From the NCBI GenBank assembly GCA_937952395.1, contig CALFYV010000090.1:97408-161407 (forward strand): 64,000 nucleotides of DNA, written 5' to 3'. The notes beneath the pieces were generated by a model that saw only the letters and a program-made list of their open reading frames with translations, was not told the DNA's origin and ran no database searches. A program made the position numbers and the translations under genes. The stretch is from an uncultured Bacteriovoracaceae bacterium. GTDB taxonomy: Bacteria > Bdellovibrionota > Bacteriovoracia > Bacteriovoracales > Bacteriovoracaceae. Position 1 is the first letter of the stretch; every line of letters begins with the position of its first letter. Below, one piece after another: positions 51,455-64,000 of this stretch.

Positions 51455-52885
51455 ATGGTTGACATTATTTCAAAAAATGGAGGTAAAAAGGTGGAGATTG
51501 TCGGTTTCGAACATCTCCACCTTTAGCTACACACAGATTTTAGTTTACTAGATGGCTATGCCATGGTGGAGGAACATGCTAAAAGAGCAACTGAAATTAA
51601 TCAAAGATTTCTGTGTGTAACTGATCATGGTGCTATGGGCGCCATACCTCGTCAAATTCGTGCTTGTGAAGAAAATAAAATAAGCCCTATTTTCGGCTGC
51701 GAGCTATACATAAATCCCATACAACCCGAATTCAACACTGAAACCGAGCGACTTCAATTCATTAAAAATATCGATCCTGATATTAAAGCTCAGTTTCGTA
51801 AATCATATCATCTTTTAGCTATAGCTTATAATAATACTGGCTATAGCAATCTTGTTAAGCTTTCTTCATGGGGTTGGACCAAGGGCTTTTATTATCGTCC
51901 TCGGGTTAATCATGAGCAGTTGATGAAATATAAAGAAGGAATTGTTTTTTCATCATGTTGTTATAACGGAGAAATTGGACAAGCTTTTGATAAAGGTGGC
52001 GAAGAAGCTGGCGAGGCGATGTTGGTGAAATATATGAAAATGTTTCACCCACATTTTTATCTTGAGTTTATATTGTTGGATTTTGATAAACAAAAGCCTT
52101 ATAACGCATTTATCATGAAAATGCATGATAAATATGGAATCCCTCTCATCATTAGTCAGGACTGCCATTATACTTATAAAGATGATAGTCACATGCAGAG
52201 TTTGATGTTAATGGTTCAAACTGGCAAGACCATCCAAGATATTCAAAAAGCAAAAGAAGCAGATGAAACCGCCGACTTTTTTGAATTACAGGATAAAAAT
52301 CTTTGGATGAAGTCTGAAGAAGAAATAGATGAAAAGTGGGAATCTGATTATCAACATATTGTTGATTATGAGTTGTTAAAAGAAGCTAAAAGAAATACTG
52401 TTAGAATTTGTGAGTTAGCTCAAGGTGTTGAATTAGACAGATCAATGAAATTGCCTCGTTTTGACGATGCCAACGATAAATTAAAAGAATATACTATGCA
52501 AGGCTTCGCTCAGCGTGGATTGCCAAAAAATAAAGAGTATCATAATCGGATTTTGGAAGAATTATCACTGATTATTCAAAAAGACTTCTCGTCTTATTTC
52601 CTCATACAGAAAATGATGACAGATGAGGCTAGACGAAAGTGTCCAGAATTGTTAGGATGGGGGGACGGGTCTGAAGCTTGCGGTCCAGGTCGAGGTAGTG
52701 TTGGCGGAAGTTTGGTTGCTTATTGTTTAGGCATTACTGATGTTGATCCTATAAAACACGATTTGTTGTTTTCTAGATTTTTAAGTCCAGCCCGTGGCGG
52801 TAAATCAGTTAAGTTAAAGTTTGCCTCTGACCCTATTTCTCAAATAGAACAAGTTGTAAACGCAACAGAGGAATGTCCTTTTTAA
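51455..52885 (+). CDS. dnaE: DnaE (Pol III alpha) N-terminal piece: PHP domain and pre-catalytic palm, with an in-frame TAG at 51524-51526
   Basis: The track ORF starts at 51563, but the same frame upstream reads MVDIISKNGGKKVEIVGFEHLHL-TAG-LHTDFSLLDGYA, which is the first PHP motif. Downstream come [23 protein letters not shown] and [13 protein letters not shown]. The ORF ends about 30 aa later, before the PDxDxDF catalytic motif. Confidence 0.7.
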
Positions 52886-53391
52886 TGATAAAGAAGATTA
52901 AAGTTACGTCTAAATCGCAGGCTAAGGCATTTATTTCTGATGTTCCTTGGGCTGCGATTAGTATTACCACATATAAGGATGACTGGCCGAAATTAAATGG
53001 AACCAAACGGTTAGGTTTATTACAGCTTTGGTTTGCAGATGTGGAATTGGAATACTATTCACTGGCAGATGAAATTTTGTTTAAGCCTGAGCATGCTAAA
53101 CAAATTTATGATTTTGTGAAATCTATGCATGAAAAAAATGATGTTGAATTACTTTTGGTGCATTGTGAGGCTGGTTATTCAAGATCACCTGCTATTGCCT
53201 GTGTATTAGAACAGGCTTTTCTTGGTTTGGAGTCTAAGCTATTTCCGGCAAAATATTTTAATTCTTTTGAAGGCGGTTATTTGAAATATGAACCAAATAA
53301 ACTGGTTCATAAAATAATGATCCAAGAAGGTATACGTTTGGGTCATTTGAAATATTCAGATGAGTTTCAACCATTTGTGACTCCAGAATGA
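52873..53391 (+). CDS. Cys-based (PTP/dual-specificity-type) phosphatase
   Basis: HCEAGYSRS matches the HCx5R(S/T) signature. Confidence 0.7.
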   Translation: MSFLMIKKIKVTSKSQAKAFISDVPWAAISITTYKDDWPKLNGTKRLGLLQLWFADVELEYYSLADEILFKPEHAKQIYDFVKSMHEKNDVELLLVHCEAGYSRSPAIACVLEQAFLGLESKLFPAKYFNSFEGGYLKYEPNKLVHKIMIQEGIRLGHLKYSDEFQPFVTPE

Positions 53392-53558
53392 AATGGCGAA
53401 AAAGATATGCTTGGGCTCTTAGATTGCAACTAGCATTTGTTTTGTTGCCATTAATATTTGCTTTTACTTATCCTCAACTGCTGTTTGCTTGTTGGGCAGC
53501 AGCATTAGTGTTTGTATTATGCGGTGTGTTTTTTCATTTCTTCTCAATATATGCCTAA
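53388..53558 (+). CDS. 56-aa two-TM membrane peptide (below the ORF-track cutoff)
   Basis: ATGA-coupled. Sequence is MKWRKRYAWALRLQLAFVLLPLIFAFTYPQLLFACWAAALVFVLCGVFFHFFSIYA. Confidence 0.4.
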   Translation: MKWRKRYAWALRLQLAFVLLPLIFAFTYPQLLFACWAAALVFVLCGVFFHFFSIYA

Positions 53559-54578
53559 TTAATTCAAGCCCATTTTAGACATAGAGTTCATTAAATTGCT
53601 AGGCTTTCTAGTTGGTTTGGCGAATTTAGATGGTGGACCCATTTCCATATCAGAATCTTCGTCTTCTATTTCATCACCCATCTCATCATCCATGTCGCCA
53701 CTTAGGTCGTCATCGCCTTCATCGTCGAAGTCCATGTCATCATCATCCATGTCATCGCCTTCGTCATTAAATTCTTCATCGCCCATCTCATCATCCATGT
53801 CCATTTCTTCATCTCCCATTTCGCCATCCATGTCCTCTGGAGATTCTTCGTCTTCCTCAGGTTCCATTTTTAATCCCATTGGAGGACCAACAGCTTCTTT
53901 TAGGGCACGAGCAAATCTGCGAGATCGTCTTTCACCATCTTCATTTTCTTCTTCGAATAAATTGGTGAGTTCACTATAAGCTTCTGGATATTCTAAAGCA
54001 GCTTTGAATACTTCGCCTAGAATATTTGCTCTTTTTAATTCGTGCATGAGTTGTTCAACAACTTTTGGACTTTTCTTGCTTAACGCAGCAACGTATCTAA
54101 TTGCTTCTGAAGGATGTGGATGAAACGCTCCTGGCTTAGTTGCGTTAACCATCGGCAAATCTTCTGTTAATTCGATTGTGCCACATTCTTTAACCATGAA
54201 TTCAGCGAATTCTTTGGTAGACATGTTTTTTGTTTTATTAAAGAACTGCTCAGTTTTTGGCAATCCTTTTGGCCATTCATCTTTAATTTCAGTGCCGAGC
54301 GATGTTAATTTAGAATTGCCGCCTTTTGTGTCAGGCGTATACTCTAAATTCTTATCTCCCATATCTGCAAAACCACCAGTTTCAGCTTTTTTTGCGGAAG
54401 CATTTTTATTTGCAGCTTTGTAGGGATTTAAATCGCCTTGGCCTTCGCCTTTTGTTGGTTTTTTAGGGTCTGGACCTTCATAATCGGCAACCAATTTAAC
54501 TTTTGGGTTTCCAGCAAGACCAGTGGCGTTTACGCCGTCTTTTCTTTCTTCGACGTAATTTGTGAATTTTTTAAACAT
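53559..54578 (-). CDS. Protein with FTNYVE leader and an extremely acidic C-terminal region
   Basis: N-terminus is MFKKFTNYVEER. The C-terminal ~100 aa are dominated by D/E/M/G (EEMDMDDEMGDEEFNDEGDDMDDDDMDFDDEGDDD). Confidence 0.65.
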   Translation of the reverse strand: MFKKFTNYVEERKDGVNATGLAGNPKVKLVADYEGPDPKKPTKGEGQGDLNPYKAANKNASAKKAETGGFADMGDKNLEYTPDTKGGNSKLTSLGTEIKDEWPKGLPKTEQFFNKTKNMSTKEFAEFMVKECGTIELTEDLPMVNATKPGAFHPHPSEAIRYVAALSKKSPKVVEQLMHELKRANILGEVFKAALEYPEAYSELTNLFEEENEDGERRSRRFARALKEAVGPPMGLKMEPEEDEESPEDMDGEMGDEEMDMDDEMGDEEFNDEGDDMDDDDMDFDDEGDDDLSGDMDDEMGDEIEDEDSDMEMGPPSKFAKPTRKPSNLMNSMSKMGLN

Positions 54579-54590
54579 GTTTCTCCAAAA

Positions 54591-62828: not shown

Positions 62829-62843
62829 AATAAGAAGGATATT

Positions 62844-63326
62844 ATGCTTAAACGAATTATTTCTGGCGCTCAAAGCGGGGCAGGTTTAGCGGGATTAAAA
62901 GTTGCTAAAGATTTCGGTTTAGAGACGGGCGGTTCAATTCCTAAGGGGTGGATTACTACTGACGGACCACATCCAGAATACGCTGAATTATATAATATTG
63001 TTGAACACTATAGTCCAAAATATCCTCCACGAACGTTCAAAAATGTTCGTGATTCTGATGGCACTATTCGGCTGGCTTTTAATTTCAACTCTCCAGGTGA
63101 GATATGTACTTTGAAGGCTTTGGATCAATATTTGAAGCCTTATATGGATGTTGATTTGAATAACCCCGGTCCTGCCCAGGAAGTTGCAGATTGGATTGTT
63201 GACAACAGTATAGAAACACTCAATATTGCAGGTAATTCAGAAAAAACCTATAAAGGGACGGAAGAAGCTGTTTATAATTATTTAAAAGAGGTTTTATCTT
63301 TATTGGATTTTAAAGAAAATGATTGA
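62844..63326 (+). CDS. YpsA / SLOG-superfamily (molybdenum-carrier-like) protein
   Basis: IISGAQSGAGLAGLKVAKDFGLETGGSIPKGW matches the IxSGGQTGxD...GGWxPKG pattern, with the Asp replaced. Confidence 0.55.
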   Translation: MLKRIISGAQSGAGLAGLKVAKDFGLETGGSIPKGWITTDGPHPEYAELYNIVEHYSPKYPPRTFKNVRDSDGTIRLAFNFNSPGEICTLKALDQYLKPYMDVDLNNPGPAQEVADWIVDNSIETLNIAGNSEKTYKGTEEAVYNYLKEVLSLLDFKEND

Positions 63327-63504
63327 TTTAATTGTTGATTTTGATGAAAAATTTGGCTTTACTTTGCGGCGAAGCAATCAGGAAGATATTAGCAGTTTTA
63401 GTAAAGATGGATTTCAATTTGCTTTGAAATGTGCCAAGAAAATTGTTCGTCATTCTGGTTATGATAAAATTGTCATTACTAAAGAAGCAGCAAAAATGAT
63501 CTAG
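63319..63504 (+). CDS. Hypothetical protein
   Basis: 61-aa ORF. Confidence 0.45.
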   Translation: MIDLIVDFDEKFGFTLRRSNQEDISSFSKDGFQFALKCAKKIVRHSGYDKIVITKEAAKMI

Positions 63505-63537
63505 TTAATTTCCGATATATCAGTTAGTATATTTTTA

Positions 63538-64000
63538 ATGTTAGATGATGTAAGAAATAAAATAATCAAACTATGCCGCACAAGGCAAAAAGAGCTTGGC
63601 TTAGATGACGAAGTTCATAATAATCGTCTGCTCTTAGAAATAAAAGAAATAGACACACAAATTGCCCATGAATATTTCTACGATCTTTATGAGAAACAAG
63701 CCAAGTTTGCTTATAATGAAAATAATCTTTTAGTGGCATATCTTCTTGGTTTGACTGATGATTTTGACATCAATTCAGACCCGACATATATCCAGGGCGA
63801 CATGCCGGATATTGATTCTGACTTTAATCCCATTGTTCGTGACTATCTGAAAAATGAATGGGCTATCAAACAATTTGGCGAAGACAAAGTTTGTGCCATT
63901 GGTAATTACACAACTTTTGGCATTAAATCTTCTTTGATTGATATGGCTCGTGTCCACGGCAAAGATCGTGGAGAAATTCTTAAATTAACCACCAAATTAG
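63538..64000 (+). CDS. dnaE: DnaE (Pol III alpha) polymerase-core piece, 5' partial (continues beyond the window end)
   Basis: Hand translation from the ATG at 63538. NNLLVAYLLGLTDDFD is a degenerate copy of the SLVAYxLGITD block. Then come the catalytic-Asp motif MPDIDSDF and EDKVCAIGNYTTFGIKSSLIDMARV. Not in the ORF track because no stop lies in the window. Confidence 0.75.
   Translation, partial: MLDDVRNKIIKLCRTRQKELGLDDEVHNNRLLLEIKEIDTQIAHEYFYDLYEKQAKFAYNENNLLVAYLLGLTDDFDINSDPTYIQGDMPDIDSDFNPIVRDYLKNEWAIKQFGEDKVCAIGNYTTFGIKSSLIDMARVHGKDRGEILKLTTKL

Follow-up and report, generated by a model that had tools for sequence, protein, structure and literature searches.

A split dnaE gene of a huge phage with a candidate stop-hop in its PHP motif

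To our knowledge, programmed bypassing has for decades had one natural example in bacterial viruses, gene 60 of phage T4, whose description is reportedly due to Huang in 1988. Genes divided into pieces are said to occur in two settings: cyanobacterial DnaE, reportedly split by a trans-splicing intein (Wu and co-workers, 1998), and T4-like phages, in which nrdA of Aeh1 is said to be split by mobE and gp43 to be made as 43A and 43B (Friedrich in 2007, Petrov in 2006 and 2010). Synthetic stop-hops, with matched codons flanking a stop codon, are documented, no natural occurrence being known according to a 2016 review (PMC5009743). A 'minimal' DNA polymerase III (Pol III) alpha of group 2.2 jumbo phages is encoded as an N-terminal NTP-binding and a C-terminal Mg- and DNA-binding protein (Iyer et al. 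2021, PMC7824862). Here we describe a dnaE gene on a 64-kb stretch of DNA (contig CALFYV010000090.1, positions 97,408 to 161,407; hereafter the window) which lies in two distant pieces, the first of them interrupted by an in-frame TAG within the metal-binding motif of its PHP domain.

Going by gene content, the source of the window is a phage of ~546 kb. The window has the genes of a huge phage, i.e. those for helicases, a PolA-like protein, a DnaB-like helicase, RecA, ClpP, both topoisomerase II subunits and a transfer-messenger RNA (tmRNA), and its ~546-kb parent contig has been assembled independently several times (ENA ERZ869936 NODE_6, NCBI GCA_003352295.1 QQVH01000006.1 and Logan runs). 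The parts of dnaE outside the interrupted motif are as follows.

51530 to 52885, plus strand: remainder of DnaE piece 1, comprising the rest of the PHP domain (other metal-ligand positions intact), the first half of the palm with its GPGRGS loop for nucleotide binding, the conserved tail KSVKLKFASDPI...ECPF and the stop (Pfam and PDB alignment).

63538 to 64000, plus strand: start of DnaE piece 2, beginning at ATG 63538 and running to ~66171 in the parent contig (877 residues).

Piece 1 matches the Pfam PHP profile (E 1.2e-38) and positions 2-98 of the 260 of the DNA_pol3_alpha profile, and it ends with ...FLSPARGG, a 27-residue tail and the stop at 52885. Piece 2 takes up the same profile at positions 100-259 and adds matches to the finger domain and HHH_6. 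Alignment to DnaE structures, a check proposed in the initial annotation of this DNA, placed piece 1 on residues 6-459 of Taq DnaE and piece 2 on residues 459-926 of Taq Pol III alpha. The two sets of matches are complementary, meeting at residue 459 in Taq DnaE and at position 99/100 in the Pfam profile. From ATG 63538, piece 2 opens, as had been described, with degenerate pre-junction helices devoid of the GS loop, followed by MPDIDSDF (with the catalytic Asp), the palm remainder, thumb, fingers, HhH and an OB-like C-terminus. Following the parent contig past position 64000 completed this second open reading frame (ORF) at 877 residues, with no PHP domain anywhere in its full length. An AlphaFold2 model of piece 2 (mean predicted local distance difference test score 84) has a confidently folded helical N-terminus, and its best Foldseek matches are Pol III alpha of Taq, Mycobacterium tuberculosis and E. 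coli, over ~860 aligned columns (fold matches 2hpi, 3e0d and 7pu7).

Jointly, the two proteins contain what defines a DnaE, i.e. a PHP domain with its metal-ligand positions and a Pol-beta-like palm with GS loop, three catalytic acidic residues, fingers and HhH (GPGRGS being found in piece 1, PDIDSDF and KFD in piece 2). The catalytic elements are, however, not on a single polypeptide: they belong to two genes 10.6 kb apart, and the cut falls between the GS loop and the DxD motif.

Proteins resembling piece 1 (PHP and half a palm, ~445-480 residues) and piece 2 (PHP-less, ~830-920 residues) form large families on huge-phage contigs of up to 633-669 kb. We compared metagenomic and viral loci, named Lnnn below, with the order and spacing of dnaE pieces read from IMG/VR loci. 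Piece 1 always precedes piece 2 on the same strand, at a spacing from ~1 kb (L061) to more than 10 kb, and unsplit orthologues occur in L075, L076, L078, L079 and LR756511.1; the comparison of synteny advised earlier thus returned a conserved order and strand, a variable distance and some unsplit relatives. Judged from these sequences, the split is real, ancient and conserved, extending over a large clade of 0.2-0.67-Mb phages.

The junction region occurs in both pieces, and this part of the initial annotation holds. Residues 4-48 of piece 2 align with residues 326-371 of piece 1 in a profile-profile comparison (hhalign, E 3.4e-5), and residues 65-86 with the LVAY helix of E. coli DnaE (phmmer). 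Set beside unsplit relatives, piece 2 begins with a decayed version of the PDANDKL... segment from which the GPGRGS loop has been deleted, and the conserved tail of piece 1 (KSVKLKFASDPI...) aligns weakly to the region just 3' of the DxD motif. Remnants flanking the cut on both sides are as expected if an ancestral dnaE was duplicated across its middle and the copies then decayed reciprocally. Piece 1 would thereby have retained an intact PHP proofreading nuclease and the nucleotide-binding, GS-loop half of the palm, and piece 2 the catalytic aspartates, thumb, fingers, HhH and OB together with a degenerate helical remnant of the duplicated region.

In nucleotidyltransferases of the Pol-beta fold, the GS loop binds the incoming nucleotide, for which Lamers in 2006 and Wing in 2008 are reportedly the sources. 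In the piece 1 family GPGRGS, LVAY and a 14-residue segment are invariant and catalytic aspartates are missing, while in the piece 2 family D91, D93, K248 and D250 are invariant and the GS loop is lacking in all members examined. As each piece conserves one half of the Pol-beta-like active site, a two-subunit enzyme, one of the two options left by the initial annotation, is favoured over independent paralogues. Neither piece alone holds a complete polymerase active site, and therefore the two would have to associate; these sequences are best read as those of a non-covalent polymerase of two subunits whose active site is composite.

The other option, that the pieces are paralogues acting on their own as a stand-alone PHP exonuclease and a self-sufficient PHP-less polymerase without any composite active site, we consider unlikely. 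It draws on the folded copy of the pre-junction helices in piece 2, which may make this protein structurally autonomous, and on the 10.6 kb between the genes in the window. However, it does not sit well with the absence of the GS loop throughout the piece 2 family, with the invariance of GPGRGS...LVAY... in a piece 1 family without catalytic Asp, with homology boundaries that are exactly complementary, or with the conserved linkage and gene order.

The second peculiarity of the locus lies at the 5' end of piece 1, where three features overlap.

51479 to 51483, plus strand: Shine-Dalgarno sequence GGAGG, 7 nucleotides (nt) 5' of the mini-ORF start; L116 has the same GGAGG and spacing before an ATG at the position of the GTG.

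51491 to 51526, plus strand: mini-ORF MEIVGFEHLHL-stop (GTG GAG ATT GTC GGT TTC GAA CAT CTC CAC CTT TAG), encoding the first PHP strand and the first part of the HxH motif.

51521 to 51529, plus strand: proposed stop-hop site, with take-off codon CTT (51521-51523), stop TAG (51524-51526) and landing codon CTA (51527-51529).

The initial annotation had taken piece 1 to be 51455-52885. The PHP domain, the half palm and the end before PDxDxDF all stand, but the frame is not intact, since an in-frame stop had been overlooked: TAG at 51524-51526, in frame from 51455, lies inside the HxH motif of the PHP domain (GGT TTC GAA CAT CTC CAC CTT TAG CTA CAC ACA GAT TTT AGT). The family consensus at this site, EIVGFEHLHLH[TS]DFS[LV]LDG, is PHP motif I and carries the HxH metal ligands. 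Deletion of six nucleotides (TAG CTA) restores exactly FEHLHLHTDFSLLDG, with the canonical HLHLHTDFS, and once the mini-ORF is joined the metal-ligand positions H, H, D, H, E, H, C, D, H, invariant across the family, are complete.

Three independent assemblies agree exactly over the TAG region, and L116 and L123 share the arrangement, so we rejected an assembly error. A general reassignment of TAG (code 15) was rejected as well: TAG is an ordinary terminator in the window, ending 6 of 57 long ORFs, and the ORF map is dense under code 11.

The closest interrupted relative, L116 (81% protein identity, from a separate study), reads ATG GAG ATA GTC GGT TTC GAA CAT CTC CAT CTT TAG CTT CAT TCA GAT. 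This comparison, together with the Shine-Dalgarno sequence, makes GTG 51491 the likely start codon of piece 1 in place of the ATG at 51455 assumed earlier. The resulting mini-ORF has 11 codons whose residues match the family consensus EIVGFEHLHLH, and in it the window and L116 differ only synonymously. In the 12 codons from TAG to the next ATG, nine differ, seven of them synonymously (including AGT/TCT and TTA/CTC) and two conservatively, and neither sequence has a start codon there. The longest conventional ORF of piece 1 begins at ATG 51563, and its product would lack three of the nine PHP ligands. With selection on both flanks, no start codon between them and ligands lost from ATG 51563, the TAG would have to be traversed by translation. 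Reinitiation after the mini-ORF was rejected, as no start codon is consistently available in the resumed frame from the stop to the DFS motif.

Between the start codon and the take-off site the mRNA of the window can fold on itself.

51487 to 51524, plus strand: RNA hairpin with 5' arm AAAGGTGGAGAT (51487-51498, start codon inside), 14-nt loop and 3' arm ATCTCCACCTTT (51513-51524).

The 3' arm ends on the take-off codon plus the T of TAG, and the fold has a minimum free energy of -22.7 kcal/mol (z = -3.97). In interrupted genes the stem joins the start-codon region to the HLHLH codons and stops at the take-off codon; it is perfect over 8-14 bp, as against 4-7 bp in intact genes, and the mean duplex energies are -20.5 and -6.2 kcal/mol, respectively. 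Among 18 interrupted relatives, five pairs show compensatory double changes, and none of 500 shuffles reached the observed covariation score. Over the same 18 sequences the helix is 89% paired, compared with 37-54% when slid. From the window to L116, GTG/CAC becomes ATG/CAT, i.e. the start codon and the His codon are altered jointly. The hairpin is specific to interrupted genes and it covaries. For gene 60, it has been proposed that mRNA which pairs behind the ribosome drives bypassing in the forward direction (bioRxiv 10.1101/2024.12.09.627546). The dnaE hairpin may have a similar role; it would probably re-form behind the ribosome and promote forward movement.

Based on these observations, we propose that the DnaE polymerase is made as two proteins from three coding segments. 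Translation of the 11-codon mini-ORF would reach the TAG within the HxH motif, where the peptidyl-tRNA-Leu would detach from CUU; the ribosome would slide 6 nt over UAG, the tRNA would re-pair on CUA and synthesis would resume to give HLHLHTDFS. Nine nucleotides (51521-51529) would in this way specify one leucine, and the product would span the junction as ...EHLHLHTDFSLLDG..., with no extra residues in ...GFEHLHLHTDFSLLDGYAMVEEHAK.

A survey of 70 distinct piece 1 5' regions showed that the gene of the window is one of many interrupted ones. A short gap at the motif is present in 30 of them, two have a group I intron and one a 1-nt deletion. The gaps measure 5-8 or 40-47 nt and fall into four classes.

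Class (i), CTT TAG CTN after HLHL: the window and L116.

Class (ii), a stop that immediately follows the last His codon (TAG, once TGA), and then 2-5 nt: 5-8 nt in total, all three frames.

Class (iii), a 40-47-nt insert after the Asp codon with a strong GC hairpin: e.g. L007, with GAC and then TGA at the base of a 17-bp stem.

Class (iv), CTY TAA CTN after DFSVL: L012, L019 and L021.

In all classes exact removal of the gap restores the canonical motif, and the G, E, H, L and H codons of the mini-ORFs in interrupted genes are invariant as protein and freely variable at synonymous sites. Interrupted and intact genes are interleaved on the piece 1 tree. Codons of the same leucine box flank the stop in the window (CTT TAG CTA), in L116 (CTT TAG CTT) and in L012, L021 and L019 (CTT/CTC TAA CTA/CTT), and skipping from one to the other restores the protein in all five; this Leu-stop-Leu configuration occurs at two different sites, those of classes (i) and (iv). 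A scan of metagenomes for a Leu-TAG-Leu-His pattern gave mostly chance matches and one genuine locus, L123.

For 12 of the 15 gap variants of class (ii), the codon just before resumption is NAY (TAC, TAT, AAC, AAT, GAC or CAC). This codon agrees with the take-off CAY in its second and third positions, yet would encode four different amino acids, and in L091 the landing codon CAC is a full match. That NAY is fixed as nucleotides and not as an amino acid is expected for re-pairing of the peptidyl-tRNA-His. Frameshifting by +1 or +2 with translation of the gap codons was rejected, as it would put 1-3 variable extra residues into an invariant motif and as the last gap codon conserves A-Y and not a residue.

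The 40-47-nt inserts are found in L007, L049, L061, L063 and L080-L083 and not in the window, whose gap is 6 nt. They share a GC-rich perfect hairpin (e.g. GCCCCCGG...CCGGGGGC) and, after it, an A-rich tract with AAC or GAA at its end, and look like a small mobile or structured element of their own. In L071 (~9990-10010), a 1-nt deletion in the T run of GAT TTT TCT (which reads GAT TTT CTT TAT) lies 3' of an HNH endonuclease gene. A -1 slip on U UUU C would be needed there to restore DFSLLDG, and the deletion could reflect either a programmed frameshift or a homopolymer assembly error.

Could the TAG simply be read, by a suppressor tRNA or by low-level natural readthrough? The product would be HLHL-X-LHTDFS, with two extra residues. 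The gap of the window is in frame, huge phages are often tRNA-rich and our tRNA scan covered 64 kb of ~546 kb, all of which is compatible with such a possibility. On the other hand, X would occupy the position of an invariant metal-binding His, readthrough cannot serve the frame-changing 5-, 7- and 8-nt gaps of the relatives, the matched CUN codons around the stop at two separate sites would be left unexplained, and TAG ends ordinary genes in the window. We therefore hold readthrough to be improbable.

A further explanation is that the TAG is disabling and that an N-terminally truncated piece 1 starts at ATG 51563, its PHP domain being a dead structural module as in E. coli. The longest conventional ORF does start at 51563, where gene callers place it, and E. 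coli DnaE tolerates a PHP domain without metal ligands (PMC3666897). However, the remaining metal-ligand positions are retained in the window and invariant in the family; both the mini-ORF and the 12 codons between TAG and ATG show purifying selection with many synonymous changes; most interrupted relatives have no start codon 3' of the gap; and a covarying hairpin is maintained around the site. Truncation in this sense seems to us quite improbable. As a matter of annotation, gene callers truncate the interrupted dnaE genes and in doing so lose the catalytic HxH motif.

If the stop is hopped over, the origin of such gaps has to be considered. In L055, L081 and L028, the ORF directly 5' of the mini-ORF matches phage HNH endonuclease or endonuclease VII families (PHROG 559, 681 and 1035); these ORFs were identified by PHROGs, Pfam giving no clear nuclease domain in them. 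An upstream HNH gene or fragment accompanies 13 of 24 interrupted genes and 2 of 37 intact ones, leaving 11 and 35, respectively, without (Fisher odds ratio 20.7, p = 2.5e-5, for distinct loci with enough upstream DNA and with phylogeny ignored by the statistic). Two group I introns (Rfam RF00028) without an ORF interrupt piece 1 between the DFSL and LDG codons, a few codons from the short-gap sites (L047:9767-9992, 90.7 bits; L072:9725-9987, 74.7 bits). Given the upstream endonucleases and the introns at the motif, the DNA encoding PHP motif I is a homing hotspot. The first nucleotides of the group I introns (TAACTAAC) resemble several of the short gaps (TAGCTAAC, TAACTA). A supposed in-frame gap of 21-24 nt in L072 was discarded, the stretch being the 3' end of its intron.

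In T4 mobA/gene 60, an endonuclease cassette comes with a gap (Bonocora 2011; Manning & Atkins 2022, bioRxiv 10.1101/2022.08.31.505936). By analogy with this cassette, the dnaE arrangement is inferred to be a natural stop-hop within a bypass cassette. The gaps probably arose as inserts destroying the target site of an HNH homing endonuclease. Plausibly, they keep the endonuclease from cutting the genome that encodes it, and are tolerated thanks to recoding.

Selfish elements have heavily colonised the dnaE gene family. Several positions in piece 2 of L013, L020, L036 and L061 and in piece 1 of L062, L072 and L074 are occupied by inteins, of which some carry homing-endonuclease domains. Common as inteins are in relatives of both pieces, a post-translational joining of the window's halves by a split intein, as in cyanobacterial DnaE, can be dismissed as highly improbable, given that neither piece has an intein Pfam match, that the 27-residue tail of piece 1 has no Cys or Ser at the junction start, and that the flanks of the break derive from DnaE, the N-terminus of piece 2 being homologous to DnaE palm helices and not to an intein C-half.

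On balance, we judge it probable that the window encodes a split, two-protein DnaE with a stop-hop in piece 1 and a gap derived from an endonuclease-immunity insert. The wider proposal is, in our view, evenly poised between acceptance and doubt: that the PHP-motif region of dnaE hosts a family of natural hairpin-assisted hops, namely CUN-stop-CUN stop-hops, 5-8-nt His hops and 40-47-nt gene-60-like bypasses, which would have originated as inserts conferring immunity to homing endonucleases and then spread in cassette form.

Several points weigh against these proposals. The hop, its efficiency and the heterodimer are all inferred, and synthetic stop-hops are said to be inefficient (Weiss and co-workers, 1987). 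Most His-type relatives match the landing codon at only two of three positions, with L016, L024 and L041 poorer still, and because the gaps shift into all three frames, +1/+2 frameshifting or readthrough could coexist with hopping. An amber suppressor may be encoded elsewhere in the genome, outside the 64 kb of ~546 kb scanned for tRNAs. Piece 2 keeps its own copy of the helix 3' of the GS loop, and two copies would need to be accommodated in one complex. Finally, an endonuclease gene upstream of the window's piece 1 was looked for and is absent, so that the window would be a case in which the endonuclease gene was lost and the gap outlived it.

The 10.6 kb between the pieces hold the genes that the initial annotation had listed, i.e. 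those for a phosphatase, an acidic protein, a PspC-like protein, the tmRNA, a peptidase, both topoisomerase subunits, an AAA+ ATPase and a SLOG protein. Two of them are of interest here.

53559 to 54578, minus strand: acidic protein gene, the only recurrent spacer gene in the relatives examined, with minus-strand homologues directly after piece 1 in L041 and L061.

55055 to 55406, plus strand: tmRNA gene between the dnaE pieces (ARAGORN; Rfam RF00023, 111.5 bits), part of the genomic context and not of the enzyme.

The acidic protein has a long D/E-rich C-terminal half, is always encoded on the opposite strand and has no Pfam or PHROG match. As spacers can be as short as ~1 kb and no other gene was seen to recur in spacers, the 10.6-kb block was accreted later. 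The initial annotation had seen an ancestral dnaE split by an inserted block with partial duplication; the single ancestor and the duplicated junction are borne out, unsplit orthologues included, but the present 10.6-kb block is not the cause of the split, in view of the ~1-kb spacers of relatives. The tmRNA carries the tag GNTYAQAA and is also found 3' of piece 1 in L047 and L072, and its position in the replication module is therefore conserved. A dual-specificity-phosphatase-like ORF (52873-53391) overlaps the end of piece 1 by 13 nt and matches a PHROG of unknown function; its start differs between gene callers (168 versus 172 residues).

Elsewhere in the window, a gene at 9289-10575 within the same replication region encodes a short family A polymerase-like protein (428 residues, Pfam DNA_pol_A, E 4.8e-17), so the phage has a second polymerase besides the split DnaE. 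Consecutive genes for a PrkA-like kinase, a DUF444 (YeaH-like) protein and a SpoVR-like protein (42360-49382) correspond to the bacterial yeaG-yeaH-ycgB stress module, here phage-borne, and a gene for a Mom-like protein (44537-46195) sits among them. SpoVR-like ORFs recur 5' of piece 1 in relatives. A megablast search with the window region found no close relatives among GenBank phages, and by protein search the only near relative among them was LR756511.1, a 595-kb unannotated 'uncultured phage'. A search for related loci with a single topoisomerase protein as query gave no match, and, apart from one misbinned contig, a scan of GTDB yielded almost nothing but bacterial DnaE, at ~33% identity.

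If the proposals above are true, these would be the first natural stop-hops and the second independent phage bypass system after T4 gene 60, and the enzyme concerned is, in addition, cut through the active site. The dnaE family would offer dozens of natural variants in gap length, resumption frame and take-off tRNA (Leu, His, Asp), which share a testable RNA element, the hairpin between start codon and take-off site. They might provide comparative data on ribosome sliding and re-pairing, as well as on homing endonucleases as drivers of the evolution of recoding. A C-family replicative polymerase cut between the nucleotide-binding loop and the catalytic aspartates would, in turn, be a natural experiment in polymerase architecture.

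How novel this is was judged against the searchable literature and GenBank phage records. The principle of the split has a precedent in the Pol III alpha of Iyer et al. 2021 (PMC7824862), in which the topological cut is the same. That enzyme is, by its description, without other Pol III domains and accompanies a family B polymerase, whereas the one encoded in the window is not minimal but a full DnaE, with PHP, fingers, HhH and OB-like C-terminus, unsplit orthologues and a duplicated junction. The searchable literature gave no example of a full-length version that has both a PHP domain and a duplicated junction. With the cyanobacterial split-intein DnaE the phage gene shares its existence as two distant genes; it differs in the position of the cut and in that the pieces of the window have no intein halves, so that no covalent joining is expected. 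In the T4-like genes in pieces, too, essential replication enzymes of large phages are said to act as non-covalent assemblies after fission. There, an endonuclease gene or other insert lies at the cut and no junction is duplicated, whereas the dnaE cut is without an endonuclease gene.

With regard to the TAG, CUU UAG CUA of the window and classes (i) and (iv) in general have the same configuration as the synthetic stop-hops made in E. coli (Weiss et al. 1987; PMC5009743). The latter were engineered, whereas the dnaE site is natural, conserved and embedded in a covarying hairpin. T4 gene 60 differs in that its gap, of ~50 nt and with a stem-loop that includes the take-off codon and the stop, interrupts a topoisomerase gene and not a dnaE PHP motif, where the gap measures 6 nt in the window and, in most relatives, 5-8 nt. 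The first dnaE ORF has 11-15 codons, which makes a long nascent-peptide signal impossible, and its sequence is fixed by the function of the PHP domain. In the dnaE hairpin, it is the start codon that pairs with the take-off site, and in sequence the dnaE region has no homology to the gene 60 cassette. On the other hand, in both systems a phage replication gene is interrupted within an invariant motif by a non-coding insert, mRNA structure is present 5' of or at the take-off site, and the host gene also exists as two polypeptides (genes 39 and 60 in T4). As with mobA, a free-standing HNH-type endonuclease gene is found nearby in many relatives, patchily, and has often been lost while the gap stays. 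Closest to gene 60 is the 40-47-nt hairpin class of the relatives, exemplified by L007 with its GAC TGA and 17-bp stem.

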